From positions 12,030-76,029 of the forward strand of contig JALHQC010000015.1 in NCBI GenBank assembly GCA_022842165.1: 64,000 bases of DNA. The letters run 5' to 3'. The DNA is from a bacterium. GTDB taxonomy: Bacteria; Pseudomonadota; Alphaproteobacteria; Rhizobiales; Aestuariivirgaceae. Position numbers and translations under genes: made by a program. Positions 12,135 to 25,152 of this stretch are shown here, piece after piece. The notes beneath the pieces were generated by a model. The model was not told the DNA's origin. It ran no database searches and worked only from the letters and a program-made list of their open reading frames with translations. The stretch's first letter is position 1. Each line of letters starts with the position of its first letter.

Positions 12135-13469
12135 CTACGCAGCCGTGCCGATGCCGTCTCTGAGGCTGACGAAGTAATCGTCTAGCCCGACTTGACCACC
12201 CTTCATGGCGATCTCCAGCCCATCCAGCTGCGGATCGCTGCTGTGAGCAATGCAGAGTGGCGAGCCCGGCGTCGCCTTAAGGGGAAAGCGCAACGTCAGG
12301 GCGAACACGTCAAGCCGGCCCAGGGCATGGCTCGATGTGTCGCCGCCGGCGAGGATGGCGCGGCGCAGTCCGCAGGTCCTGATCGCATCGCCAGCAATCA
12401 TGCCCAGAGCAGCGCCGACGCGATGGCGGCCGCCGGGGATCCGGTCCAGCTCTGTTCCCTTGTCGTTCTTCGGATCCAGCGCAGTGTAGACGATCACACT
12501 CCGGCCTTCCTTCAGATAGGCAATCGAAGCGGCGGTGAGACGCTGGCCTTCCTTCCGGCCTTGATCACCAGCCAAAGCAATGGGATCAGCCTCAATGCCG
12601 GCAAAGCCGTGGTTCAAGGCATGGCGAATCTGGCGTGCCGTCGTGGGTGAGCAGCTGCCTGAAACGGCAATGATGCGATCAACCCTGTCCAATGGCTGGA
12701 AAGACGACCGGCCGGGAATGATGCCAGCCTCCACCCATGCCTTGGCGAGCGCATAGTTCACGCCCGATGACCCCACAATGAAAGGGCCGGTCTTTTCAGA
12801 GAGACGCAGCAGCTGACGCCCGGTTTCGATCTGGGTTGCCGTATCCAGCACGTCGAACAGAACGATGCCGTCATGTCCTGAAACCGCTGCATCAACGGCG
12901 GAAGAGTTGGCACCGGCAAGGATATTGGCCGGAACGAGCGCCGCCGGTACCCCTGTTTGCCGTGAAAGATGAACCCGGAGGTCTGCCTCGTTCATCGGCG
13001 TGACGGGGTGACGGCTCATCACCGGGTGGCGGTCTATGCGGTAGGTTTCACCCTGATAGGCTGCAAAGAGATGACCGAAGGCCGTGTAACGCTTGAGCTG
13101 CGGTGCACCGACCACGAGCGGCGTGAGCTTCTGGCCGAAAATATCGCGTGCAATCTCGACGGCCCTGCCGATGCTGCCAACCGTGGGGCTCGAATCGAAG
13201 GTGGAACAGACCTTATAGTGACAGAACTGTGCGCCGCGGTCCTTCAGCCACCGGAAGTATCGTGGCAGGTGCTCGTCCATCCATTCGGGCGGCTGGCTGC
13301 GGCTGGTGCCTGCAATGCCGATGGCCCGGCAGGCGGAGAAGCGCTGCAGCTGTTCGTCGTTCGGAATGCGTGTGAACAGCGCCGTGTCGATGCCATGAAG
13401 GCTGAGCGCTTCCATCACATCGGTCGAGCCGGTGAAATCATCGCCGTAATAGGACAGGAGAAGCCCCAT
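12135..13469 (-). CDS. oiaK: Four-carbon acid sugar kinase family (DUF1537), OiaK-like
   Basis: YYGDDFTGSTD, YKVCSTFDSS, AGGDTSS and MKGGQVG motifs; coupled to the RuBisCO-like gene. Confidence 0.75.
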   Translation of the reverse strand: MGLLLSYYGDDFTGSTDVMEALSLHGIDTALFTRIPNDEQLQRFSACRAIGIAGTSRSQPPEWMDEHLPRYFRWLKDRGAQFCHYKVCSTFDSSPTVGSIGRAVEIARDIFGQKLTPLVVGAPQLKRYTAFGHLFAAYQGETYRIDRHPVMSRHPVTPMNEADLRVHLSRQTGVPAALVPANILAGANSSAVDAAVSGHDGIVLFDVLDTATQIETGRQLLRLSEKTGPFIVGSSGVNYALAKAWVEAGIIPGRSSFQPLDRVDRIIAVSGSCSPTTARQIRHALNHGFAGIEADPIALAGDQGRKEGQRLTAASIAYLKEGRSVIVYTALDPKNDKGTELDRIPGGRHRVGAALGMIAGDAIRTCGLRRAILAGGDTSSHALGRLDVFALTLRFPLKATPGSPLCIAHSSDPQLDGLEIAMKGGQVGLDDYFVSLRDGIGTAA

Positions 13470-14740
13470 CAGGAGGCCTTGCCGTCGCCGAAGAACTTCA
13501 GCGATGCAGCAAGTTCTGGATGATCCACGGCATAGGTTTCGAGGGCAATCCCCTTGACCGCCGCCTCCCAGGCCTGGCGAACGGCGCGGACGCCCGCTGC
13601 AGGGCCGCCAGGATGGCTGACGATGCCGCCGCCGCAGAGATAGAGGAGATCCTGCGTCTTGCCGGTGCGCTCGTACGTGTCAGGCGCCTGCCCGCCCCAT
13701 TGGCCGGAACCTGCGACGGGGAGCGGGCAATCGGCCCCGGAAAAGATCGGCTGCTGCAGCGCCTTGAAGGAGGCAACGAAGCTTTCATCAGGCTCCCAGT
13801 ATTTCACGCGGATGCCGTTGATCTGGAACTGGTCGACGCCGAGCAGACGCCAGAACTGTTGGTAGACAGAGAAATCCATGCCGAGGCCGGGGTGACGGGT
13901 AAGAATGTCCCAGCCGTTCCGATGGGCATGGAGCACAAGGCCGGAGCGTTTGCGCAAGAACGCCATTCCGCCAAAGCCGATCGAGTTGATGTTGATGACG
14001 GCGCAATTGCCGCCTGCCTTCAACACCATGTCGTGGTTGCGCATCATGATGTCCGGATCGGCATGGCTGATGCCAAAGGCGTACATCACCTTGCGGCCGG
14101 TACGCTGCTCGCGATCGAGGATCAGCGGCATGATGGCCTTCACACGCTCTTCCAGCGGCGAATAGGCAGGGCTCATCAGCTTTTCGTCGTCCTTGATGAA
14201 GTCGACGTCAGCCTCGATCAGGTCCTTCACCAGCTCGGCGGTTTCATGCGGGCGCAGACCCAGAGCGGGCTTTACGATCGTACCGATGATGGGGCGGCCG
14301 TGAACGCCGGTGAGCCTGCGGCTTCCGGCAATGCCGAACTGCGGGCCTGGATGTGCGGCGGCGAAAGCACCTGGCAATTCCAGTCCGGTCACGCGGATAC
14401 CGGTGAAGCCCTTGATCGAATAGATGCCCGCTATGGCGATCGTCATCAGCGCCGAGAGGTCGGTGCCGATGGCATCGAGCGGAAAATCGATATCGGCTTC
14501 GGCGCGGTTAAACGGCCCGTCTTCGCTTGACGGAAAAGACGATTGCTTTACAGGGGCCAGCCGCCGGAGCGCGGTGACGCGCGCAGCCACCCGAGCCTTG
14601 AGTTCTTCCGTCTCTCCGGGGACAGCGACGAAGGTTCCGGTGGATTGATCGCTTGCAATCTTGTCTGCCAGCCTTTCCGGATCACCTGTCGATTCAATGA
14701 GATAGGTCAAGCGGATCATGTTGGAAGCCGGGTTGCGCAT
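13469..14740 (-). CDS. oiaX: RuBisCO-like protein (form IV), 3-oxo-isoapionate-4-phosphate decarboxylase-like
   Basis: ASDQSTGTF, GTIVKPALG, DFIKDDE carbamate motif, HAHRNG; no small subunit or prk; adjacent DUF1537 kinase. True start may be ATG 14719. Confidence 0.75.
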   Translation of the reverse strand: MRNPASNMIRLTYLIESTGDPERLADKIASDQSTGTFVAVPGETEELKARVAARVTALRRLAPVKQSSFPSSEDGPFNRAEADIDFPLDAIGTDLSALMTIAIAGIYSIKGFTGIRVTGLELPGAFAAAHPGPQFGIAGSRRLTGVHGRPIIGTIVKPALGLRPHETAELVKDLIEADVDFIKDDEKLMSPAYSPLEERVKAIMPLILDREQRTGRKVMYAFGISHADPDIMMRNHDMVLKAGGNCAVININSIGFGGMAFLRKRSGLVLHAHRNGWDILTRHPGLGMDFSVYQQFWRLLGVDQFQINGIRVKYWEPDESFVASFKALQQPIFSGADCPLPVAGSGQWGGQAPDTYERTGKTQDLLYLCGGGIVSHPGGPAAGVRAVRQAWEAAVKGIALETYAVDHPELAASLKFFGDGKAS

Positions 14741-14798
14741 GGGTTGTTTACTGGTATGATGAACTGAACTGATGACAAACTAGCAGCCTTGCCGCGTC

Positions 14799-15518
14799 AT
14801 GCAAACCGATCGCATCATCCGCCGAAAACTTTCCGACGAAGTGCTGGAACGGCTGCTCCGCATCATTTCGGAGGGCAATCTCAAGCCCGGCGATGCCATG
14901 CCGTCGGAGCGCGAACTGATGGAACGCTTCGGCGTAGGGCGGCCTGCCATCCGCGAGGCGATGCAATCGCTCAGCAACATGGGGCTGGTTTCAATTTCGC
15001 ACGGCGAACGGGCACGGGTTCAGGAACTTACCGCGCAATCGATCATCCGGCAGGTCGACCAGTCGGCCCATATCATGCTGTCGCGATCCTCCGACTCGCT
15101 CGAGCATCTCAAGAATGCACGGCTATTCTTCGAGCGCGGCATGGTGCGCGAGGCCGCAGCCAAGGCCACGCCTTCCGATATCGAAACCTTACGTGCAACC
15201 GTCGCGGAGCAGCGGGAAAAACTGGGTAAGGCTGAAGAATTCATGACGGCGGATATGCGCTTTCATACGCAGATTGCCGCAATCTCGGGCAATCCCATCT
15301 TTGTCTCGGTGAGCGAAGCAATGCTGGGCTGGCTCAAGGCCTATCACGTGGAACTGCTGTTCTGGAGCGGCAAGGAAACCTTCACGATGGCCGAGCACGA
15401 GCAGATCATCGCCGCCATCGCGAAGGGCGATGCCGATGCGGCCGAAGAGGCGCTGGTGATCCACCTCAAGCGTTCCGCCATTCTTTATGCGCTGAACAAC
15501 CAGAAGGAACAGCCTTAA
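14799..15518 (+). CDS. GntR/FadR-family (NanR-like) transcriptional regulator
   Basis: wHTH PSERELMERFGVGRPAIREA plus FCD domain (DMRFH..IA..SGN); divergent from oiaX. Confidence 0.9.
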   Translation: MQTDRIIRRKLSDEVLERLLRIISEGNLKPGDAMPSERELMERFGVGRPAIREAMQSLSNMGLVSISHGERARVQELTAQSIIRQVDQSAHIMLSRSSDSLEHLKNARLFFERGMVREAAAKATPSDIETLRATVAEQREKLGKAEEFMTADMRFHTQIAAISGNPIFVSVSEAMLGWLKAYHVELLFWSGKETFTMAEHEQIIAAIAKGDADAAEEALVIHLKRSAILYALNNQKEQP

Positions 15519-16345
15519 GCGGCTGCAAGGCCGAGTATCGCGCGCGCCTCGGCGGGGCTCGCGGCATGCCTGTCAAACTCTCCGCAGAGGACGGCAACAC
15601 GCTTCACAAGCTCGGCATTCGATGCCGCAAGACGCGTTTCGTCCCAGCGGATGTTGTCCTCCAGTCCGGTGCGGCAGTGGCCGCCACGCTCGAGGCACCA
15701 GCGGTTCACTTCGAGTTGATGCTTGCCGATCCCTGCCGCGACCCAGGTCGATTGCGGCGAAAGCCTCGTTACTTCATCGACCATGAAATCGAAGGCCTGG
15801 CGGATGACCGGCATGGCGTTCTTGACGCCCATGACGAACTGCACGTGCAGTGGCTTCTTCAACATCCCCTCGTCCGCGAGGCGCAATGCCTGATAGAGCA
15901 TGGAGAGATCGAAAACCTCGATCTCGGGCTTCACGTTGTAGTCCAGCATCTTTTGCGCAAGTTCGCGGACGAGGTCTGGATGGTTCTCGTAGATGATGGT
16001 GGGGAAGTTGCACGAGCCTGTGGAAAGCGAGGCCATGTCGCATCCCAGATGCAGCATGCCGCCGCGTTCCGCGCCCTTGCCGGAACGCCCGCCTGTCGAG
16101 AACTGCACGATCATGCCGCGGCAATGCTTGCGCAGACCCTCCAGCAGCGCCGCGAAACGATCGGGGTCCGATGTCGGAGTCTGGTCGTCTTTCCGCACAT
16201 GCACGTGCGCGATGGTGGCCCCGGCCTCGAAGGCGGCGTGGGTCGATTCCACTTGTTCGGCAATGGTGATCGGAACTGCTGGGTTGTGCTCCTTCCGCGG
16301 AACGGAACCCGTGATGGCGACGGTGATGATACAGGGCTTTGTCAT
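15515..16345 (-). CDS. Beta-keto acid cleavage enzyme (BKACE / DUF849)
   Basis: IITVAITG, AHVHVR Zn motif, KPEIEVFD, RTGLEDN. Confidence 0.88.
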   Translation of the reverse strand: MTKPCIITVAITGSVPRKEHNPAVPITIAEQVESTHAAFEAGATIAHVHVRKDDQTPTSDPDRFAALLEGLRKHCRGMIVQFSTGGRSGKGAERGGMLHLGCDMASLSTGSCNFPTIIYENHPDLVRELAQKMLDYNVKPEIEVFDLSMLYQALRLADEGMLKKPLHVQFVMGVKNAMPVIRQAFDFMVDEVTRLSPQSTWVAAGIGKHQLEVNRWCLERGGHCRTGLEDNIRWDETRLAASNAELVKRVAVLCGEFDRHAASPAEARAILGLAAA

Positions 16346-16357
16346 GAGCGATGCGGA

Positions 16358-18004
16358 TCAGGCTTCGGCGTAGTGTTTCATTTCATTGCGCTCCCATTCC
16401 AGAACGGCGGCCGGCAGCAGCGGCTTTCCGGCGATGAGGTCTGACGCTTTCTCGCCAATCATCGTGGTGGGCGCATTGGTGTTCGAGGAGTTGATGAATG
16501 GCATGATGGAACTGTCGCAGACGCGCAAGCCTTCGAGGCCATGAACCTTGAGGTCGGTGCCAACGACCGACATCGCATCATGCCCCATCTTGCAGGTGCC
16601 GACGGGATGATGGTCGGTCTTTGCCATGCGGCAGGCATATTCGAAGATCGCTGCGGGGTCGCTCACACCCGGCAGCACCTCGCGTTTCACGAAGGGTTTC
16701 AATGCCGGTTGCGACATGATCTCGCGCGCCATCTCAAGGCCGCGGAGGGAAATTTTCAGATCATAAGGGTCCGACCAGAAGTTGGGATCGATCAGCGGCG
16801 CATCTGTGATGTCAGGCGAAGCAAGCCTTACCGTACCGCGTGAGCGCGGGCGCATGAAGGCAGAGTTGAGGGTGACGCCTGCGTTGTCGAGCTTGGCGAT
16901 GCCGGCCTCGATCCCCGAGCCCTGTCCGAAGTGAAACTGGATATCAGGCGAGCGCGCATCCGGATCGGCATACCAGAAGGCACCCGTCTCGAAGAGCGAG
17001 GAGACCACCGGGCCCGACTTGAACAGCAGATACTGCAGGCCCGCCATCACCATGCGATGCGGCTTCTGCAAACCGTCATAGGAATGATCGCCCGTGCATT
17101 CCGAAAGCACGCAGATATCGACATGATCCTGCAGGTTCGAGCCGACGCCCGGCAGATCGTGCACGACATCGACGCCAACGGACTTCAGATGATCCGCCGG
17201 GCCAATCCCCGAGAGCATCAGGAGGCGCGGCGAACCAATAGCGCCCGACGTGATCAGCACTTCCCGCGTTGCACGGTATTCCGTATCTTTGCCATCGACG
17301 CGTACCTTCAGCCCCACGGCCCTGCCCTTTTCGACCATGATGCGGGTGGCGAGCGCCCCCGACATGACGGTGAGGTTCTTGCGCGGCCTGGCGGGATTGA
17401 GAAAGCCGGTGGCCGCCGACGAACGCCGCGCATTCTTCTGCGTCAACTGATAGTAACCCACGCCGCGCTGGTAGCGGCCATTGAAATCCGGATTGTAGGG
17501 AATGCCGGCCTGCTGGGCGGCGCGAATAAAGGCGTCGCACACCGGAAGCGCGCTTTTCGGCATCGTCACGCCAATGGGGCCATCGGTTCCGTGATAGTCG
17601 TCGCTGAAGCGTTCGTTTCCTTCGGCGCGCTTGAAATAGGGGAGAATGTCGCGGTACCCCCAGCCTTCGCATCCGCCCTCATCGCGCCAGGCGTCATAGT
17701 CCTTGGCATTGCCGCGCGTATAGACCTGGGCATTGATGGTAGAGCCGCCGCCCACGACCTTCGCCTGCGTGTACCACAACACGCGGTCCTTCATGTGGCG
17801 TTGGGGAACCGTGGACCAGCCCCAGGACGCGATGCCTTTCGTCATTTTCGCGAAGCCAGCAGGCCAGTGAAACAGCAGACTTGAATCGGGTCCGCCAGCT
17901 TCGAGGAGAAGAACCGAAACATCCGGATCCTCGGTGAGGCGGCTTGCCAATACGCAGCCGGCGGTTCCCGCGCCCGAGATGATATAATCGAAGGTGGTGG
18001 ACAA
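16358..18004 (-). CDS. GMC-family FAD oxidoreductase
   Basis: FDYIISGAGTAGCVLA, GGGSTINAQ, VGSNLQDH, HHPVGTCKMG, SSNTNAP; TTG start with GGAGG RBS. Confidence 0.9.
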   Translation of the reverse strand: MSTTFDYIISGAGTAGCVLASRLTEDPDVSVLLLEAGGPDSSLLFHWPAGFAKMTKGIASWGWSTVPQRHMKDRVLWYTQAKVVGGGSTINAQVYTRGNAKDYDAWRDEGGCEGWGYRDILPYFKRAEGNERFSDDYHGTDGPIGVTMPKSALPVCDAFIRAAQQAGIPYNPDFNGRYQRGVGYYQLTQKNARRSSAATGFLNPARPRKNLTVMSGALATRIMVEKGRAVGLKVRVDGKDTEYRATREVLITSGAIGSPRLLMLSGIGPADHLKSVGVDVVHDLPGVGSNLQDHVDICVLSECTGDHSYDGLQKPHRMVMAGLQYLLFKSGPVVSSLFETGAFWYADPDARSPDIQFHFGQGSGIEAGIAKLDNAGVTLNSAFMRPRSRGTVRLASPDITDAPLIDPNFWSDPYDLKISLRGLEMAREIMSQPALKPFVKREVLPGVSDPAAIFEYACRMAKTDHHPVGTCKMGHDAMSVVGTDLKVHGLEGLRVCDSSIMPFINSSNTNAPTTMIGEKASDLIAGKPLLPAAVLEWERNEMKHYAEA

Positions 18005-18083
18005 AGAACGCCTCCGGATCGCCGTCGCCCGTTTCAAGAGCGAGTTCGCCGCTGCCGCGAAACAGCGAGAGTCTTGCCATTTG

Positions 18084-18097
18084 TAACCACTTGGTTA
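18084..18097. promoter_or_regulatory. Palindromic operator TAACCA-CT-TGGTTA (probable TetR site) between divergent sigma70-like promoters
   Basis: Perfect 6-bp inverted repeat between TTGCCA (18074-18079) and TATCAT (18096-18101); an opposite-strand TTGACA at 18117-18122. Resembles the RutR-type TTGACCAnnTGGTCAA box. Confidence 0.7.
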
Positions 18098-18136
18098 TCA
18101 TCAGGCGGGTTTCAAATGTCAAGCCGGGGTACAGCA

Positions 18137-19156
18137 ATGCCAGCCATCGGAAAACGCAAGTTCGGGCGCGTTGACCTCGAAGTGACCGACATGGGCTTTG
18201 GCGCCGCACCCATCGGCAATTTCCTGCGGCCTATCAGCGAAGAAACGTCCCACGCCATGGTGCAAAGGGCATGGGACCATGGCATGCGCTATTTCGATAC
18301 GGCACCTTACTACGGGCACGGGTTGTCCGAGGCGCGCCTCGGACATTCGCTGCGCTGGAGACCGCGCGGAGAATTCGTCATATCGAGCAAGGTGGGACGT
18401 GTGCTGACGCCAGCAAAGCGCTCGGCCATCAATTTCGCGCCATGGGTGGATGCGCTGCCCAACGTCTGCCGTTTCGACTACAGCTACGACGGTACGATGC
18501 GGAGCTTCGAGGATTCCCTGCAGCGACTTGGCCTCGAACATGTCGATATTCTCTATATCCATGATGCCGACGTGTTCACGCATGGCGAAGCGCAGCAGAA
18601 GGTCTATTTCCGGCAGGCGATGGAGGGCTGCTACCCCGCGCTTTTCAAACTCCGTGAGCAGGGCGCGGTGAAGGCGATCGGCGTTGGTGTCAACAATTGG
18701 GAAGTGATGCTCGATTTCATGAAGGCCGGTGACTTCGACTGCCTGCTGATGGCCGGCCGCTATACCCTGCTGGAACAGGAACCGCTCGACGAACTGATGC
18801 CGCTTTGCGAACAGCGCGGGGCCGCGATCGTCATCGGCGGCGGTCTGAACAGCGGCATCCTGGCGACCGGCGCCGTTCCCGGTGCCAAGTACAACTATGC
18901 CCCCGCCCCAGAACCCATCATGGAGCGTGTCCGGCAGATCGAGGCCGTGTGCAAGGCGCATAATGTGCCATTGCCCGCGGCCGCCCTGCAATTCCTGCTG
19001 GCCCATCCTGCGGTCGCATCGCATGTGCCCGGCACCCGCACAGTCGAGCAGATGGACCAGAACGTGGCATGGGTCAGCCATCCGATCCCTCAGGATTTCT
19101 GGGCCGAGTTGAAGCACCGGGGGCTGCTCCGGCAGGATGCGCCCGTTCCGGCATGA
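18137..19156 (+). CDS. Aldo/keto reductase (aldose/pyridoxal dehydrogenase-like subfamily)
   Basis: GFGAAPIGN, YFDTAPYYG..SE, SSKVGR, FDYSYDG, AGRYTLLEQ. Confidence 0.88.
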   Translation: MPAIGKRKFGRVDLEVTDMGFGAAPIGNFLRPISEETSHAMVQRAWDHGMRYFDTAPYYGHGLSEARLGHSLRWRPRGEFVISSKVGRVLTPAKRSAINFAPWVDALPNVCRFDYSYDGTMRSFEDSLQRLGLEHVDILYIHDADVFTHGEAQQKVYFRQAMEGCYPALFKLREQGAVKAIGVGVNNWEVMLDFMKAGDFDCLLMAGRYTLLEQEPLDELMPLCEQRGAAIVIGGGLNSGILATGAVPGAKYNYAPAPEPIMERVRQIEAVCKAHNVPLPAAALQFLLAHPAVASHVPGTRTVEQMDQNVAWVSHPIPQDFWAELKHRGLLRQDAPVPA

Positions 19157-19830
19157 TGGCGGGCAAATTGCCATCCGCCGTCCGCTCACGCGACCCTGAC
19201 GCAACGCGGCTCCGCATCCTCGATGCCGCAAAGAGCGAATTCGCGAGAAAGGGGCTGGGCGGCGCACGGGTGGACGACATCGCCGCCAAGGCAAAGATCA
19301 ACAAGCGGATGCTGTATCACTACTTCGGCAACAAGGAAGAATTGTTCCGGCGTACGCTGGAAGATGCCTATGGCGCCTTCCGCGCCGCGGAAGCCGAACT
19401 CAGGATCGAGCAGGACGAACCCATCACAGCGCTGAAGCGGCTGATGACGTTCACCTGGGAATACTATCTTTCAAACCCCGAGTTCATCACGCTGGTGAAC
19501 AGCGAAAACCTGCACAAGGCGCGGCACATCCGGAAGTCGGAAAAGATGGATGCCATGAACAAACCCTTCGTCGCCAGGATGAAGACATTGCTCGAGCGTG
19601 GCGTGGCGCAGGGCCAGTTCCGGCCGGATCTCGACGCTGTCCAGATATTGATCGCCCTCTCCGGGCTTGGTTTCCACTATCTCAACAACCGGCATACGGG
19701 CGCCATCGTCTATGGCCGCGACCTGATGAGCCCGGAGGCGAAGACGGCGCGACTGAGGTTCAACATCGAGGCGATATTACGGATCGTTTGCAGGCCGGAG
19801 ACACTCATGAAGCTGGAGAAGCTCCAATGA
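19153..19830 (+). CDS. TetR/AcrR-family regulator (RutR/NicS-like)
   Basis: RDPDATRLRILDAA..EFA..GLGGARVDDIA..A.INKRMLYHYFGNKE. Confidence 0.9.
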   Translation: MMAGKLPSAVRSRDPDATRLRILDAAKSEFARKGLGGARVDDIAAKAKINKRMLYHYFGNKEELFRRTLEDAYGAFRAAEAELRIEQDEPITALKRLMTFTWEYYLSNPEFITLVNSENLHKARHIRKSEKMDAMNKPFVARMKTLLERGVAQGQFRPDLDAVQILIALSGLGFHYLNNRHTGAIVYGRDLMSPEAKTARLRFNIEAILRIVCRPETLMKLEKLQ

Positions 19831-20588
19831 ACGGCCAAGCACTGGTGACGGGCGCGCGGCGCGGAATCGGCAAGGCCATCGCACTGGCGCTGGCGGATGC
19901 GGGCTTCGACCTGGCCGTGTGCGACCTGACCGTGTCGGATGAACTCGCCGGGCTTGCGGCCGGGATCGAAGCCAGGGGCCGCAAGGCGATTGCGATCGCC
20001 GCCGACATCTCCGAGATTGCCGGCCATGCACAAGTTCTTGACAAGGCGGAAGCCGCACTTGGTCCCTTGACGACGCTCGTCAACAACGCCGGTGTCTCGG
20101 TCATGGTGCGGGGCGACCTCCTCGATGTGACGGCGGAGAGCTACGACCGCTGCCTCGACGTGAATACGCGCGGCACGTTTTTTCTCACCCAGGAGTTCGC
20201 GCGCCGCGTCCTGAAGGTCCGCGGCGGAGCGCATCGCTCGATCGTCACCGTGTCTTCCGCCAATGCCGTGGCGCCGTCCATCGCACGGGGAGAGTACTGC
20301 GTCTCGAAGGCCGCGGTCTCGATGGTGTCGAAGCTGTTCGCGGCGCGGCTTTCGAACGATGGCATCGGCGTTTACGAAATTCAGCCTGGCTTCATCGAAA
20401 CCGATATGACAGCCCCCTCGAAGCCCCGTTATGATGCGCTTATCGAGGGCGGCCTCACAGTCATCAAGCGCTGGGGTCAGCCAGAGGAAGTGGCGCGCAT
20501 TGCCGTGACATTGGCGACAGGACTACTTCCCTATACCAGCGGACAGATCATCCAGGCCGATGCCGGGCTTCTGACAGTGAGATACTGA
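19827..20588 (+). CDS. Short-chain dehydrogenase/reductase
   Basis: TGARRGIG, NNAG, YCVSK catalytic motif; ATG overlaps the TetR stop. Confidence 0.9.
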   Translation: MNGQALVTGARRGIGKAIALALADAGFDLAVCDLTVSDELAGLAAGIEARGRKAIAIAADISEIAGHAQVLDKAEAALGPLTTLVNNAGVSVMVRGDLLDVTAESYDRCLDVNTRGTFFLTQEFARRVLKVRGGAHRSIVTVSSANAVAPSIARGEYCVSKAAVSMVSKLFAARLSNDGIGVYEIQPGFIETDMTAPSKPRYDALIEGGLTVIKRWGQPEEVARIAVTLATGLLPYTSGQIIQADAGLLTVRY

Positions 20589-20592
20589 ACCC

Positions 20593-21747
20593 ATGAAAAT
20601 CAAACTGCCGAAGTCCGATGGCTCCACCGAAACCTATGTTCTCGAGGGCGAACCGCTGCCGGCGCGAAAGCCGCGCGCGCCTTTCAACCGCGTGGCCCTT
20701 GCCGCCGCGCATGTGGTGGCAGATCCCCTTACCGGTGCGGACCCATCAGGCTCCCCCGCCATAGACTGGGAGAGAACGCTGGCCTTCCGCTCCCACCTGC
20801 TCGACCTCGGCTTCGGCATTGCCGAGGCCATGGATACCTCGCAGCGTGGCATGGGGCTCGACTGGCCGCGGGCGCTCGAGCTGATCGGGCATTCGCTGAA
20901 ATCGGCCGGCAAGCGCGCAGGGATGATCTATTCGGGCTGCGGAACCGACCAGTTGCCGATCGCCGAAGCCCGCACGCTCGACGATGTGATCCGCGCTTAT
21001 CTGGAGCAGTTTCATGCGGTACAGAAGCGCGATGGCCGCGTGATCATGATGGCCAGCCGCGCGCTACTGCGGGTTGCGCGCTCGCCAGACGATTATGTGA
21101 AGGTCTATTCGCGTGTTCTGGCCGAAGCCGATCGTCCGGTGATCCTGCACTGGCTGGGCGGCATGTTCGACCCGGCGCTGCACGGATATTGGGGAACGGA
21201 TGACCTTGGAGCGGCCATGGAAACCTGCCTCGCGGCGATTGCCGGAAACGCGGCAAGGATCGACGGTATCAAGATCTCGCTGCTCGACGACGCGAGGGAA
21301 ATCGCAATGCGGCGGCGTTTACCCGAGGGTGTCAAGATGTACACCGGCGACGACTTCAACTATCCAAAACTCATTGCCGGAGACGATCAAGGATACTCGC
21401 ACGCCCTGCTTGGAATATTCGATGCAATCGCGCCTGCTGCCTCCGCGGCGCTGTCCGCGCTCGCCCGTGGGAACATGACGAAGTACGAGGCGCTGATGGC
21501 GCCGACCGTGCCGTTGTCACGCCTGATTTTCCGCGCGCCGACCCAGTACTACAAGACGGGCATCGTATTTCTCGCCTGGCTCAACGGCCATCAGAATCAC
21601 TTCGTGATGGTGGGCGGCGCGCAGGCGATGCGGCCACTTCCCTATTTCACAGAAATCTTCAAGCTTGCCGATCAGGCAGGACTTCTGGCCGACCCGCCGC
21701 GCGCTGCCAGACGGATGAAGCAGATGCTTTGTCTCTATGGCGCGTGA
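20593..21747 (+). CDS. DUF993 / dihydrodipicolinate synthase-like protein
   Basis: AAAHVVADPL, AEAMDTSQRGMGLDW, ILHWLG, GIKISLLD, YTGDDFNYP, SHALLGIFD. Confidence 0.8.
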   Translation: MKIKLPKSDGSTETYVLEGEPLPARKPRAPFNRVALAAAHVVADPLTGADPSGSPAIDWERTLAFRSHLLDLGFGIAEAMDTSQRGMGLDWPRALELIGHSLKSAGKRAGMIYSGCGTDQLPIAEARTLDDVIRAYLEQFHAVQKRDGRVIMMASRALLRVARSPDDYVKVYSRVLAEADRPVILHWLGGMFDPALHGYWGTDDLGAAMETCLAAIAGNAARIDGIKISLLDDAREIAMRRRLPEGVKMYTGDDFNYPKLIAGDDQGYSHALLGIFDAIAPAASAALSALARGNMTKYEALMAPTVPLSRLIFRAPTQYYKTGIVFLAWLNGHQNHFVMVGGAQAMRPLPYFTEIFKLADQAGLLADPPRAARRMKQMLCLYGA

Positions 21748-22601
21748 TGCGCGATCTCGGGAAACATCCGGAGGCCTGTTCCATCAACACCGCCACACTC
21801 GGGTTTCAGGCACCCATCGAAACCGTCATCGACGCCGTTGCGCGCGCCGGGTTCGGCGGCATCGCACCATGGCGAAGGGAGGTGGAGGGCCATGACGTAT
21901 CAGCAATTGCGCGCCGCATCCGCGAGGCCGGGCTGACGGTTTCAGGCTATTGCCGCAGCACGTATATTCCTGCGCTGACTGAACATGACTACAAGGCGAA
22001 TGTCGCGGCAAACCGGCGCGCCATCGATGATGCAGCTGCACTTGGATCGCCGTGTTTCGTAATGGTGGTCGGCGGCCTGCCGGAAGGATCGAAGGATATC
22101 TCAGGAGCGCGGCGGCAGGTGGCGGAAGCTACCGCCCTGCTGCTCGATCACGGTAAGAATGCCGGCGTGAAAATCGCGTTGGAGCCCCTGCATCCCGTCT
22201 ATGCGGCGGAGCGGTCCTGCCTGTCGCTGCTGTCGGAAGCGCTCGATCTATGCGCCCTGATCGAAGGCAATTGCAGCGATCCCTGGCTTGGCACAATTGT
22301 CGATGTCTATCATTTGTGGTGGGATCCCAATCTTTCGCGAGATTTGGCGCGTGCGGGACGGGAAAACCGCATCCTCGGCTTTCACGCTTGCGACTGGCTC
22401 GTGCCTACTTCGGACATTCTCAACGACCGCGGCATGATGGGCGATGGCGTTATCGATGTGCCGCAGATCCGTCAAATGGTGGAAGACAGTGGCTACGAAG
22501 GGTCCGTCGAGGTCGAAATCTTCTCCGTCAATAACTGGTGGAGACGCCCGATCGACGAGACTCTGAGGACTTGCCGCGAGAGACTGGCCACCTCTACTTA
22601 G
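21747..22601 (+). CDS. Sugar phosphate isomerase/epimerase family TIM barrel
   Basis: SINTAT, ALEPLHP, DVYHLWWD, FHACDW, DRGMMGDGVID, EVEIFS. Confidence 0.85.
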   Translation: MRDLGKHPEACSINTATLGFQAPIETVIDAVARAGFGGIAPWRREVEGHDVSAIARRIREAGLTVSGYCRSTYIPALTEHDYKANVAANRRAIDDAAALGSPCFVMVVGGLPEGSKDISGARRQVAEATALLLDHGKNAGVKIALEPLHPVYAAERSCLSLLSEALDLCALIEGNCSDPWLGTIVDVYHLWWDPNLSRDLARAGRENRILGFHACDWLVPTSDILNDRGMMGDGVIDVPQIRQMVEDSGYEGSVEVEIFSVNNWWRRPIDETLRTCRERLATST

Positions 22602-23437
22602 TCCCAGCGCCCGTTCATCCAGGACGGACTGACAAGTCGGCCACCGCGCGTGCCGAGCGACGAAAGTGCCGTCATGTCATGGCCGGACAGTTCAAAACCC
22701 GTGGCATTGAGGTTCGACAGCGCATTGCCGCGCTTCGTGGTCATCGGAATTGCGGCGACGCCTTGCTGAAGGATCCAGCGCAACACGATCTCGGAAGCCG
22801 GCCGGCCGTATGCCGACGCCATGGCCCGAATAAGTTCTGCCTGCAGGGCCTTACCGCGTGCAAGCGGGCAATAGGCGGTGAGAGTGATGCCAAGGTCTCG
22901 TGCTTCTTTCAAAACCTCCCGCTGGTCGAGCAGCGGATGGAATTCAACCTGATTTGCAATGATCGCGCCCTGAGCGACGGTCTGCGCGCGGCGCATCATG
23001 GCAGGCGTGAAGTTGCTCACGCCGATGGCGCGGGCCATGCCCTTGTTCTTTTCCTCGACCAGACGCCCGACAACGGCATCAAGGTCTTCATCCGGAGGCG
23101 GCCAATGAATGAGCAGCAGATCGGGCGGACCGCCGAGGTCTTCCACCGAACGCGCGACCGATGCCGCGAAGCGGGATTGGGACAGATTGGAGGGATCGAC
23201 CTTGGTGACGACATAAACCTGTTCGCGAGGAATGCCCGAGGCGCGCAGCGCCTTTGCCACATCCGCCTCGTTAGCGTACATTTGTGCAGTGTCGATGTGG
23301 CGAAGGCCGATCTCCAGCGCCATTGCCACGGCGCGGGTCGCGTCGTCGCCGCGAAGCGGAAAGGTGCCTAGGCCAAGCGCCGGAATCCCATTCGGCAGGA
23401 TCGGAATTACAGGTGCTGCCGGCATTTGTGTTTCCAC
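22598..23437 (-). CDS. Aldo/keto reductase (2,5-DKG reductase-like)
   Basis: LGLGT, HIDTAQMY.NE, VTKV, DLLLIHWP, IGVSNF, NQVEFHP. Confidence 0.88.
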   Translation of the reverse strand: METQMPAAPVIPILPNGIPALGLGTFPLRGDDATRAVAMALEIGLRHIDTAQMYANEADVAKALRASGIPREQVYVVTKVDPSNLSQSRFAASVARSVEDLGGPPDLLLIHWPPPDEDLDAVVGRLVEEKNKGMARAIGVSNFTPAMMRRAQTVAQGAIIANQVEFHPLLDQREVLKEARDLGITLTAYCPLARGKALQAELIRAMASAYGRPASEIVLRWILQQGVAAIPMTTKRGNALSNLNATGFELSGHDMTALSSLGTRGGRLVSPSWMNGRWD

Positions 23438-23454
23438 GGCATTTGATGTTTACT

Positions 23455-23468
23455 GAACCGACTGGTTA
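23455..23468. promoter_or_regulatory. Second, degenerate copy of the TAACCAnnTGGTTA operator
   Basis: GAACCG-AC-TGGTTA (2 mismatches) in the divergent intergenic region between the AKR and acyl-CoA dehydrogenase genes. Confidence 0.55.
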
Positions 23469-23543
23469 CTTCATTGCCAGCGCCTGTCAAGCGCACCGCG
23501 GGGCCTGCCGCAGCGCAATCGATGCAACGCCGCAGGATCGTTT

Positions 23544-24710
23544 ATGACCACGACGCCCTTCTTCATCCCGACGTCGAAGCTTTCTTCCGATGTTTACGCA
23601 CAGATACAGGATACGGCGCGCCGCTTCGCTGCGGACAGAGTCAGGCCGCATGCAGCGGAGCTCGACGAAAGCGAGCGCTTTCCCGCCGAAATCTATGCCG
23701 GGATGGCCGAAGCGGGGCTATTCGGCATTACGGTGCCCGAAGCACTCGGGGGCGCGGGGCTCGACACCCTGTCATATGCGCTTGTGATGGAGGAATTGTC
23801 CCAGGGCTATGCCTCGGTTGCGGATCAGTGCGGGCTGGTCGAACTGATCGGCACCCTGCTCTCGGTTCACGGTTCGGACAGCCAGCGGACGCAATGGCTG
23901 CGCGATGTGCTGTCGGCGCGCAAGCGTGTGGCCTACTGCATCACCGAAGCCGAGGCTGGCAGCGATGTCTCGGGCGTCAAGACGACTGCCGTCCGCGACG
24001 GATCCGGCTGGCTGCTGTCTGGTTCGAAAATCTGGATTCACAACGCGCCGGTCGCGGATGTCGCGTTCGTCCTGGCACGAACCGACCCCGCGTTAGGACA
24101 CCGGGGCATGTCGATCTTCATCGTCGACCTCGCAGCCGAGGGGGTCTCGCGCGGCAGGAAGGAATCCAAGATGGGGCAGCGTGCGTCGCCGGTGGGCTCA
24201 CTCCACTTCGAAAGTGTGAGGCTCGGTGGTGATGCCATTCTGGGCGAGATGAACCGGGGCTTCCACATCATGATGAGCGTACTCGACAAGGGCCGTATCG
24301 GGATCGGCGCGCTGGCTGTGGGCATTGCGCAGGCGGGACTCGACGCCGCCGTTGGCTATGCAAAAACCCGCAGGCAGTTCGGCAGGCCTGTAGCCGAGAA
24401 CCAGGGGCTGCAGTGGCTTCTTGCCGACATGAAGAAAGATATCACCGCGGCCCGCGCACTCGTTCAGCGGGCGGCAATGATCATGGATGCGGGTCTGCCC
24501 GCGACAAGCGACTGCTCGATTGCCAAATGCTTTGCCAGCGATGTGGCGGTGGCACATGCCGCCAATGCCGTACAGGTGTTCGGCGGCTCGGGCTATATCC
24601 GGGGTTTCGAGGTCGAGCGGCTCTACCGCGACGCCAAGATCACCCAGATCTACGAAGGCACAAACCAGATCCAGCGGACGATCATTGCACGCGAATTGCT
24701 GAAAGACTGA
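23544..24710 (+). CDS. Acyl-CoA dehydrogenase
   Basis: YCITEAEAGSD, GSKIWIHN, KMGQRAS, FGGSGY, IYEGTNQIQR. Confidence 0.92.
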   Translation: MTTTPFFIPTSKLSSDVYAQIQDTARRFAADRVRPHAAELDESERFPAEIYAGMAEAGLFGITVPEALGGAGLDTLSYALVMEELSQGYASVADQCGLVELIGTLLSVHGSDSQRTQWLRDVLSARKRVAYCITEAEAGSDVSGVKTTAVRDGSGWLLSGSKIWIHNAPVADVAFVLARTDPALGHRGMSIFIVDLAAEGVSRGRKESKMGQRASPVGSLHFESVRLGGDAILGEMNRGFHIMMSVLDKGRIGIGALAVGIAQAGLDAAVGYAKTRRQFGRPVAENQGLQWLLADMKKDITAARALVQRAAMIMDAGLPATSDCSIAKCFASDVAVAHAANAVQVFGGSGYIRGFEVERLYRDAKITQIYEGTNQIQRTIIARELLKD

Positions 24711-24711
24711 C

Positions 24712-25152
24712 ATGCTCGAGGCGCTGAATGCAAGTGTCGGACAAAGCGTGACGTGCTCCAAGACCGTGGGCGAGAGCGACGTCTATCTCTTTGCCGGCAT
24801 AACAGGAGACCTGTCTCCCAACCACGTGGACGAAGCCGCCATGAGCAGGACGACCTATGGACACCGCATCGCTCACGGCGCCCTGCTGGTGGGCTACATG
24901 TCGCGGGCTTCGACCATGATCTGCGACGCCTGCGGGCCGCTGATGGCGACGCATCTACCGGTGTCGCTGGGTTATGACCGGGTCCGCTTCGTAAGGGCTG
25001 TGCTCATCGGCGACACAATCACGATCGATTACAGGATCAGCGGGATCGATGCCGGCAAGCTCAGAACGATGGCCGACATAGAGCTGCGCAACCAGAGCGG
25101 GGCTGTCTGCGCTGTCGCGGTGCATGTCATGCAGTGGATACTGCGAAGCTGA
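24712..25152 (+). CDS. MaoC-family (R)-enoyl-CoA hydratase-like protein
   Basis: FAGITGDLSPNH.D and IAHGAL hydratase-2 motif. Confidence 0.85.
   Translation: MLEALNASVGQSVTCSKTVGESDVYLFAGITGDLSPNHVDEAAMSRTTYGHRIAHGALLVGYMSRASTMICDACGPLMATHLPVSLGYDRVRFVRAVLIGDTITIDYRISGIDAGKLRTMADIELRNQSGAVCAVAVHVMQWILRS

Follow-up and report, generated by a model that had tools for sequence, protein, structure and literature searches.

A probable operator palindrome conserved beside a TetR-family gene links DUF993 enzymes to a putative sugar-plus-CoA catabolic regulon

The nearest described mixture of sugar-type redox chemistry and CoA esters is found in the oxidative deoxyribose and deoxyribonate pathways, in which an SDR oxidizes the sugar acid, and the route then proceeds either by cleavage with a BKACE and acetyl-CoA or through CoA-bound intermediates with a CoA transferase (Price et al. 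2019, PMC6365646). These pathways run without DUF993, a TIM-barrel isomerase, GMC enzymes, an acyl-CoA dehydrogenase (ACAD) or MaoC. DUF993 is an orphan family that occurs in a widespread gene triad, such as SMc04130-SMc04133 of S. meliloti, where the gene order is dehydrogenase-DUF993-isomerase; a literature search on DUF993, PF06187, the SMc0413x genes and the gene combination described below found no functional study, and no published function for the triad. On the regulatory side, FadR of Bacillus and Thermus, KstR2 and PaaR belong to the TetR family, respond to acyl-CoAs and repress CoA-dependent catabolism, acting on genes for acyl-CoA dehydrogenases and hydratases by way of palindromes in their promoters. 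A further TetR-family regulator, RutR of E. coli, has a 16-bp box with the printed consensus TTGACCANNTGGTGAA (PMC2952853).

Here we analyse a cluster of ten genes in a 64-kb window, the whole stretch of DNA studied, from a member of the Aestuariivirgaceae (Table 1). The Pfam families of all ten are those named in the original prediction made from this DNA, but the starts of tetR, SDR and GMC(A) need correction. We propose that the TetR protein is an autoregulated repressor that would bind as a dimer to a 14-bp operator, TAACYAnnTRGTTA, and block RNA polymerase, and we put the probability of this explanation as a whole at roughly 0.75.

Table 1. Genes, promoters and operators of the cluster, with the distant operator O2 (window positions unless a contig is given).
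Feature	Coordinates	Strand	Remarks
BKACE	15515..16345	-	12 nt after GMC(A)
GMC(A) flavoprotein oxidoreductase, choline-dehydrogenase-like	16358..18004	-	start most likely TTG 18004, behind GGAGG; listed ORF extends to 18037
Promoter-like TTGCCA-16-TATCAT, for AKR1-tetR-SDR-DUF993-isomerase	18074..18101	+	sigma-70-like; O1 occupies the spacer plus the first part of the -10
Operator O1, perfect palindrome TAACCACTTGGTTA	18084..18097	.	TAACCAcuTGGTTA-type
Promoter-like TTGACA-17-GATAAC, for GMC(A)-BKACE	18094..18122	-	-35 TTGACA 18122-18117, 17 nt, -10 GATAAC 18099-18094
AKR1, aldo/keto reductase	18137..19156	+	nearest solved relatives are L-galactose dehydrogenases
TetR-family repressor (predicted), 'TetR1' clade	19153..19830	+	225 aa; start most likely ATG 19153, ATGA overlap with AKR1 stop
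SDR oxidoreductase	19827..20588	+	start most likely ATG 19827, ATGA overlap with tetR stop
DUF993 protein	20593..21747	+	predicted DHDPS/NAL-type TIM barrel; invariant Lys227 in strand 6 of the model
Xylose-isomerase-like TIM barrel protein, SMc04130-like	21747..22601	+	start GTG 21744 or ATG 21747; overlaps DUF993 stop
AKR2, DkgB-like aldo/keto reductase	22598..23437	-	convergent with isomerase gene
Degenerate operator O3 (probable), GAACCGACTGGTTA	23455..23468	.	2 mismatches; 76 nt before ACAD start, 18 nt before AKR2 GTG
Acyl-CoA dehydrogenase (ACAD)	23544..24710	+
MaoC-like (R)-hydratase	24712..25152	+
Operator O2	C20:29713-29726		strongest operator of the genome

The perfect palindrome O1 was predicted to lie between the -35 and -10 of the AKR1 operon and to overlap the promoter of the divergent GMC-BKACE operon, and both statements hold, the -10 of the latter sharing 4 nt with O1. 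The minus-strand promoter was read by eye, being missing from the promoter scan because the last base of its -10 is C. As O1 occupies the overlap of two facing promoters, the AKR1-tetR-SDR-DUF993-isomerase operon and GMC(A)(-BKACE) should be shut off together. Only two matches to the palindrome with at most two mismatches occur in the window, O1 and O3, against a mean of 0.26 in shuffled windows, of which 2 in 100 reach two matches. When the whole genome is scanned with a matrix, two sites stand alone at 21-24 bits and the next best reaches 14 bits; O1, at 21.3-21.7 bits, is the second best of the genome, and the nearest relative (L119) carries an identical site at the same place.

Comparison within the genus Aestuariivirga points to TAACYAnnTRGTTA as this TetR's conserved operator. 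In all 18 genus loci first examined, the motif lies 30-50 nt upstream of tetR and is part of a conserved block (ttATAAA-TAACYAnnTRGTTA-TTTCAAG); it is present in nearly all of 80 further loci and adjoins tetR in about 75 related loci. Of 42 genomes with the TetR, 35 contain exact copies, nearly always adjoining tetR, as against 1 of 19 genomes without it (Fisher p = 6e-9, a value overstated because the genomes compared are kin). Phylogenetic footprinting and co-occurrence thus bear out the assignment of the palindrome to the local TetR, and judged from these sequence comparisons it is very probably the binding site of that neighbouring repressor.

The protein itself has the expected architecture, an N-terminal helix-turn-helix followed by an all-helical ligand domain, with scores that exceed the cut-offs for TetR_N (57 bits) and for TetR_C_29 (141 bits), PDB matches that are all TetR-family proteins, and a predicted palindromic operator adjoining its own gene inside a promoter spacer. 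The original prediction had drawn on RutR-like TetRs, a likeness that is apt for the layout of the operator but not for orthology. The layout TAACCAnnTGGTTA, with 6-nt half-sites, a 2-nt centre and an ACCA/TGGT core, is that of the RutR box, and a single palindrome with an ACCAnnTGGT core, bound by a dimer in the case of RutR, would likewise serve the present TetR. RutR is also the best-scoring NCBIfam family, yet the score is 52.2 bits against a cut-off of 368 for the equivalog TIGR03613. The operator differs from that of RutR in having A in place of G (TAACCA here, TGACCA in RutR), the ligand domain here is TetR_C_29, probably unlike that of RutR, and the genes under control have no connection with pyrimidine use. 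FadR and KstR2 are matched weakly, at scores far below the family cut-offs.

The regulon had been placed within the window, but the best operator of the genome stands outside it. O2 fills the 16-nt spacer of a TTGAAA/TATAAC promoter before a GMC(B)-CoA transferase-enoyl-CoA hydratase (crotonase) operon on contig C20, with a CUT1-type ABC importer downstream; O1 and O2 would be the two strong operators of this genome. The genome-wide motif scan that had been suggested does single out O1, but its second clear site is O2 and not 23455-23468. As for next-best matches as extra regulon members, a pair on contig C87 lies inside a tRNA gene and the others that were compared have no homologues of cluster genes on their contigs, and all were rejected. 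The ancestral locus runs from crotonase-CoA transferase-GMC(B) across the operator to tetR-SDR-DUF993-isomerase; it is split in this genome, and its GMC(B) half keeps O2. Reading a regulon from a single window may overlook its best site, as here, where that site is on a different contig.

Other genomes extend the list of linked genes. Detached members with extra operators upstream include GMC(A), whose orthologues have their own operator, SDR, DUF993-isomerase, another AKR and ACAD-AKR1, and in Marinobacterium an extra operator precedes the ETF genes. GMC, AKR1 and the ACAD-MaoC arm are linked to the TetR/operator system in many relatives: AKR1 either accompanies ACAD-MaoC or diverges from GMC(A), with operator-like sites in front of it, ACAD-MaoC-AKR1 lies inside the tetR operon itself in one locus (L132), and in gammaproteobacteria the tetR operon is headed by ACAD. 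The convergence of the isomerase gene and AKR2 is retained in many relatives.

Whether control within the window reaches ACAD-MaoC depends on O3. The second copy of the palindrome exists as predicted, with two mismatches and between AKR2 and ACAD, but it is weak: it scores 13 bits, a background level beside the 21-24 bits of the two clear sites, and the promoter region there has a poor -10 (CATTGC). Across the 4.3-Mb genome, which is GC-rich, the pattern with up to two mismatches has 37 matches against 31 for a reversed control, so that the pattern alone cannot support O3. A matrix trained without ACAD and AKR1 sites ranks O3 9th among 4.29 million positions. The AACC/GGTT cores are intact in both half-sites, the left one carrying two changes. 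In place and flanks O3 matches a conserved operator before the ACAD module of relatives, the flanks (tttact...GGTTACTTcat) being like those of the perfect ACAD operator of one relative (G009) and like those of operators in the clade of TetR2, the paralogous TetR that serves this module in other relatives. An alternative is that only O1 and O2 work, O3 being a dead relic of the operator of a lost TetR2 and ACAD-MaoC and AKR2 being unregulated, silent or decaying. Operators of the form GCACYAnnTRGTTACTT head TetR2-ACAD-MaoC operons in three genomes (G043, G049, G055), a single TetR of this family was found in the present genome, the region is deleted in L119 together with parts of AKR2, ACAD and MaoC, and a genome with the same gene order (G050) has no site in the corresponding gap. 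L120-L122 have no intergenic gap at this position, and five of the nine genomes with TetR1 only and ACAD have no operator before ACAD. We nevertheless regard the loss of function as the less likely case: AKR2, ACAD and MaoC are intact and full-length here, two genomes with TetR1 only (G009 and G061) retain operators before ACAD or AKR1, the recognition helices of the two TetR clades are nearly identical, and the chance of a site as good as O3 in its 106-bp gap is about 2e-4. We lean towards O3 being a real, if degenerate, operator, which would descend from the conserved ACAD-module operator and probably exert weaker control over the ACAD-MaoC promoter region.

A broader objection is that the ten genes make up no single pathway but a mosaic, in which rearrangement has put separate units side by side, BKACE having come with a GntR/RuBisCO-like/kinase unit and AKR2 with an ABC-transporter operon. 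BKACE orthologues 89-93% identical occur as AKR-BKACE beside GntR and RLP in three genomes without the TetR (G002, G053, G066), L120-L122 share the layout of the window but without BKACE, and among relatives BKACE was found near the cluster only in L119. Because it travels with the GntR/RuBisCO-like flank, its membership of the pathway is doubtful, although here it is probably co-transcribed with GMC(A), being 12 nt behind it with no terminator between, and the two genes are also adjacent, in reverse order, in G061. In L120-L122 a CUT2-type ABC operon ends with AKR2, and the split of the ancestral locus also fits a mosaic. By contrast, many genomes from two bacterial classes have GMC(A), AKR1, AKR2 and ACAD-MaoC close to the tetR cluster or downstream of its operator, and we judge a wholesale mosaic somewhat less likely than not. 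The original prediction of ten genes under one operator is thus supported in part: GMC, AKR1 and ACAD-MaoC are tied to the system in many relatives, but BKACE is doubtful, O3 is weak and the regulon exceeds the window. The neighbouring GntR/FCD protein (14799-15518), whose gene is 2.6 kb away, could also be thought to bind the palindrome in place of the TetR. This is very improbable, and we rejected it on co-occurrence: the motif tracks tetR and not gntR, adjoins tetR where no GntR is nearby, is absent from genomes that have GntR-RLP-BKACE without the TetR, and has the half-site spacing of RutR-type TetR operators.

If the TetR is the repressor, its release might be brought about by a pathway intermediate, a sugar acid or an acyl-CoA, and the enzymes it controls would most likely act on a sugar-like compound that is imported, breaking it down in three stages. 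The first would be oxidation by AKR1, a candidate aldose 1-dehydrogenase by homology, and the two GMC enzymes. Neither GMC enzyme is BetA (choline dehydrogenase) by family score, GMC(A) reaching 485 against 732 (TIGR01810) and 573 against 605 (PRK02106), and GMC(B) 483 and 543, respectively. The second would be a keto-acid stage with the SDR, the TIM-barrel protein as isomerase/dehydratase and DUF993 as a Schiff-base enzyme, and the third a CoA-ester stage with the CoA transferase, ACAD and two hydratases.

The model of DUF993 (pLDDT 87.8) is a (beta/alpha)8 barrel with the DHDPS-type aldolase fold. Its Foldseek matches include many DHDPS and KDG-type enzymes (E ~1e-9, TM-score up to 0.86 on target), and Lys227, invariant in 26 sequences, lies inside the sixth strand of the model (residues 223-228), which makes it a candidate for the Schiff-base lysine that class I aldolases of the DHDPS/NAL superfamily have at the end of that strand. 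The protein is 57% identical to SMc04132 of S. meliloti (PDB 4DNH), and the isomerase matches SMc04130 (PDB 3JU2; E = 3e-85). The gene order is also that of the S. meliloti triad, but an SDR takes the place of the Gfo/Idh/MocA enzyme, and in the present cluster two GMC enzymes and a CoA-ester arm come with the triad.

A bolder reading, to which we give somewhat less than even odds as a whole scheme, is that a sugar or sugar acid is degraded by the products of this regulon along a CoA-dependent route that has not been described. In such a route the SDR, the TIM-barrel enzyme and DUF993, forming a Schiff base at Lys227, would make a short hydroxy or keto acid from the oxidized sugar, loading of that acid onto CoA would then fall to a YdiF-type CoA transferase, and the last steps of the breakdown to an ETF-linked acyl-CoA dehydrogenase and two hydratases. 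The gene combination had not been recognised as a described pathway; we too found no functional study of it, but the deoxyribonate pathways do join SDR, BKACE and CoA esters. A further difference from them is that the present cluster lacks BKACE as a conserved member. BKACE scores above the cut-off for 3-oxoadipate:acetyl-CoA acetyltransferases (473 bits against 350, NF053568; Pfam BKACE, 310 bits) and is a putative enzyme of that kind, but it is unlinked to SDR in relatives. The deoxyribonate pathway would call for SDR and BKACE as a conserved pair together with glycerate kinase, and none of the annotated stretches of the loci showed a glycerate kinase.

The switch itself, a TetR repressor with a palindromic operator, is ordinary; its value lies in the map that it gives of genes belonging together. 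The operator-gene pattern recurs in more than 100 genomes from two classes of Proteobacteria and ties the DUF993/TIM-barrel pair to two GMC flavoenzymes, aldo/keto reductases, a CoA transferase, ACAD and hydratases, with ETF added in Marinobacterium. The gene set so defined can be tested for a sugar-plus-CoA breakdown pathway, and cultured hosts that carry the cluster include Rhodovulum imhoffii DSM 18064 and Marinobacterium nitratireducens CGMCC 1.7286. If the proposal is true, a CoA-dependent sugar route would be the first function for DUF993.

The pairing of the TetR encoded in the window with the palindrome at 18084-18097 (TAACCACTTGGTTA; here O1), its predicted operator, is well supported by comparison with related genomes. 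Allowing up to two mismatches, a pattern search with TAACCANNTGGTTA found only two matches across the 64-kb window, the two that the original prediction had named: O1 and 23455-23468 (GAACCGACTGGTTA; O3). Shuffled sequences averaged 0.26 matches, and 2 of 100 reached two. The idea that one site is common to two facing promoters also agrees with the consensus matches: O1 is enclosed by plus-strand TTGCCA-16-TATCAT (18074-18101), and the minus strand carries a perfect TTGACA (18122-18117), 17 nt and then GATAAC (18099-18094), which overlaps O1.

A TetR orthologue (54-73% identical) is present in 18 of the 24 genus genomes sampled first, and almost all TetR-bearing genomes of that sample have TAACYAnnTRGTTA 30-50 nt upstream of tetR. 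Conservation extends around the site, as ttATAAA-palindrome-TTTCAAG; toward the divergent gene this block reads TTGAAA, a 16-nt spacer occupied by the palindrome, and TATAAg. Across 61 genomes of the genus, the exact site is present in 35 of the 42 with the TetR versus 1 of the 19 without it (Fisher p 6e-9, an overstatement given that the genomes are related and the counts non-independent). The sole TetR-less genome with a site is 72% complete and has it upstream of DUF993-isomerase. The same picture of site and tetR recurs in another 80 loci, taken from a genome collection at species level, and the nearest relatives, with TetRs 78-85% identical, have an identical or near-identical site at the same position. 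As most relatives are metagenome bins, some absences, and the deletion in the nearest relative discussed below, could be assembly artefacts.

Variants of this arrangement were also seen. Three loci (L034, L035 and L037, in genomes G024, G005 and G018) have a distinct TetR subclade with a variant operator, TAACCGGTTCGTTA, and an unchanged recognition helix; in G018, the aldo/keto reductase AKR1 is upstream of tetR too, with a site on either side of AKR1. In three other loci (L067, L088 and L089, in G054, G041 and G059), perfect operator copies far from tetR precede a third type of AKR, 34-38% identical to AKR2, suggesting additional unlinked regulon members in some species.

The original prediction placed ten genes of the window under this TetR. 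Its pairing of repressor and palindrome stands, but the regulon appears to differ in composition and to be larger than proposed. Across the genus, one side of the operator has conserved genes for an enoyl-CoA hydratase, a CoA transferase and a second GMC enzyme, GMC(B), which is 50% identical to the window's GMC(A); the other side has conserved tetR, SDR, DUF993 and isomerase genes. A GMC(A) orthologue often lies just past the isomerase gene, with or without AKR2 and with its own operator copy. In the window's genome the ancestral unit is divided between contigs: GMC(B)-CoA transferase-hydratase, followed by a CUT1-type ABC importer, lies on another contig, C20, which retains an intact ancestral promoter and operator (O2, C20:29713-29726; TTGAAA, TAACCAGATAGTTA, TATAAC). 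Abutting O2, exactly where relatives have tetR, is a 600-bp stretch (C20:29080-29700; L046 9380-10000) with 46-48% G+C, against ~62% for the genome, which contains a DUF4926 gene and appears to mark the rearrangement breakpoint. Scanning the whole genome with a position-weight matrix yielded two outstanding sites, O2 at 23.6-23.9 bits and O1 at 21.3-21.7 bits, with a gap below them down to about 14 bits. As these two alone stand out, the true second operator is the one on C20, outside the window, and the regulon is predicted to include the unlinked GMC(B)-CoA transferase-hydratase operon. Two further operator-like matches, 28 nt apart on contig C87 (1888-1929), are both within a tRNA gene and were rejected as false positives of the motif scan.

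The Pfam families originally named are present in all ten genes of the window, three of which (tetR, SDR and GMC) need corrected starts. Because the corrected tetR and SDR starts form ATGA overlaps, the five plus-strand genes from AKR1 to the isomerase are tightly coupled; no terminator-like sites were found between them.

Genes of the window proposed as one regulon, with most likely starts where these differ from the gene list
Gene	Position	Strand	Remarks	Basis
BKACE	15515-16345	minus		Pfam
GMC	16358-18037 as listed	minus	most likely start TTG 18004, GGAGG in front	Pfam
AKR1	18137-19156	plus		Pfam
TetR (TetR_N + TetR_C_29)		plus	most likely start ATG 19153, ATGA overlap with AKR1 stop	Pfam
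SDR		plus	most likely start ATG 19827, in ATGA overlap	Pfam
DUF993	20593-21747	plus		Pfam
Xylose-isomerase-like barrel		plus	between DUF993 and AKR2 in gene list	Pfam
AKR2	22598-23437	minus		Pfam
Acyl-CoA dehydrogenase (ACAD)	23544-24710			Pfam
MaoC	24712-25152			Pfam

O3 had been proposed as the second operator. The bare pattern carries no weight: with up to two mismatches allowed, the genome contains 37 matches, and a reversed control yields 31. Scored with a matrix derived solely from relatives' sites adjoining tetR, GMC, SDR and DUF993, O3 reaches 13.1 bits, 9th of 4.29 million positions but within the background range. What lifts it above chance is its location, its flanks and the link of the ACAD arm to the TetR/operator system. 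The chance of an equally good site is ~2e-4 in its 106-bp gap and ~2e-3 in any 1 kb of nearby non-coding DNA. Its surroundings, tttact-GAACCGACTGGTTA-cttcat, are matched by tttaca-TAACCATCTGGTTA-cttcat in genome G009, which has the same distance to the ACAD gene and, like the window's genome, a single TetR of this family; a ...TRGTTACTT pattern also lies upstream of ACAD-led operons in Nitrincola and Marinobacterium. Behind the palindrome, ACAD-MaoC-AKR1 follows the isomerase within a single tetR operon (L132), ACAD follows the hydratase (G067), and ACAD is the first gene of two types of operon, ACAD-SDR-isomerase-tetR (two gammaproteobacteria) and ACAD-SDR-DUF993-isomerase (Rhodovulum).

Several Aestuariivirga genomes have a separate paralogous repressor, TetR2, for the ACAD-MaoC(-AKR1) module. 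TetR2 is 55-56% identical and clusters with proteins of Rhodobacterales and Oceanospirillaceae in a distinct clade; its operators are GCACYAnnTRGTTAC. The window's genome lacks TetR2, and O3 could therefore be a relic. However, the recognition helix, NKRM(L/M/I)YHYFG, is almost identical between both TetR clades, and O3 keeps the AACC and GGTT cores intact; its two changes affect the outermost and the innermost position of the half-sites, and the half-sites GAACCA and TAACCG are found in other loci of this system. Several absences count against O3 as a working operator: genome G050, with the window's gene order, has no site at this position; 5 of 9 genomes that have ACAD and only the window's TetR clade have no operator upstream of ACAD; and the nearest relative (L119 9816-9918; TetR 85% identical) has, in a bin assembly, lost ~800 bp equivalent to window 22970-23766, comprising half of AKR2, the intergenic gap with the site and the ACAD start. 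L119 has further gaps, with ACAD and MaoC truncated more, which would mean that either the CoA arm is decaying in this lineage or the bin is misassembled. On balance, we lean towards the TetR binding O3 in vivo, most likely more weakly than O1 and O2, which would make ACAD-MaoC a probable but weak member of the regulon.

The membership of BKACE is doubtful. It lies 12 nt downstream of GMC(A) with no terminator between them, and so is probably co-transcribed with it in this genome. In three genomes without such a TetR (G002, G053 and G066), its closest orthologues (89-93% identical) form an AKR-BKACE pair that adjoins the same GntR and RuBisCO-like genes; BKACE is absent from L120-L122, which have the window's layout, and the only other GMC(A)-BKACE adjacency is in G061. 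We treat BKACE as a putative passenger or recent recruit. Its sequence score exceeds the NCBIfam cut-off for 3-oxoadipate:acetyl-CoA acetyltransferase, a candidate function. Directly to its left (12135-15518) are genes for a four-carbon acid-sugar kinase (SBD_N/NBD_C), a RuBisCO-like protein and a divergent GntR/FCD regulator; this unit, syntenic with BKACE in relatives without the TetR cluster, is probably its older neighbour and presumably resembles a portion of a route of the apiose or tetronate type. Many relatives have AKR2 convergent with the isomerase gene, and in L120-L122 it is the last gene of a CUT2-type ABC operon.

DUF993, on which a literature search found no paper, shares 57% identity with SMc04132 (PDB 4DNH), an unassigned protein of S. 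meliloti, and its model (pLDDT 87.8) has a DHDPS/N-acetylneuraminate-lyase barrel. This superfamily carries a Schiff-base lysine in the sixth strand; Lys227 of DUF993, invariant in 26 sequences, is within the sixth strand of the model. The isomerase matches SMc04130, the nearest solved relatives of AKR1 are L-galactose dehydrogenases, AKR2 resembles DkgB, both GMC enzymes fall under choline dehydrogenase cut-offs, and the CoA transferase belongs to family I as a fused, FadX-like enzyme. In the window's genome, L120-L122 and Rhodovulum, the cluster is flanked by sugar-type ABC importers. In Marinobacterium nitratireducens (L197 7639-11174), a perfect operator immediately precedes genes for ETF beta, ETF alpha and ETF-ubiquinone oxidoreductase, which adjoin a GMC gene and have the ACAD-SDR-isomerase-tetR operon nearby. 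One locus (L069 5569-7224, in G050) has a tetR-SDR-isomerase operon without DUF993 between SDR and isomerase, in contrast to all other examined loci.

In the candidate pathway, oxidation of an imported sugar-like compound would be followed by its conversion into a short acid through the SDR, the TIM-barrel enzyme and DUF993, and this acid would be broken down as a CoA ester. Among described pathways, a pair of oxidative deoxyribonate routes (PMC6365646) comes closest in logic, with gene sets that differ from this cluster. The regulatory device itself, now well documented by comparative evidence, appears to be an ordinary TetR/operator switch; the interesting part is the pathway.
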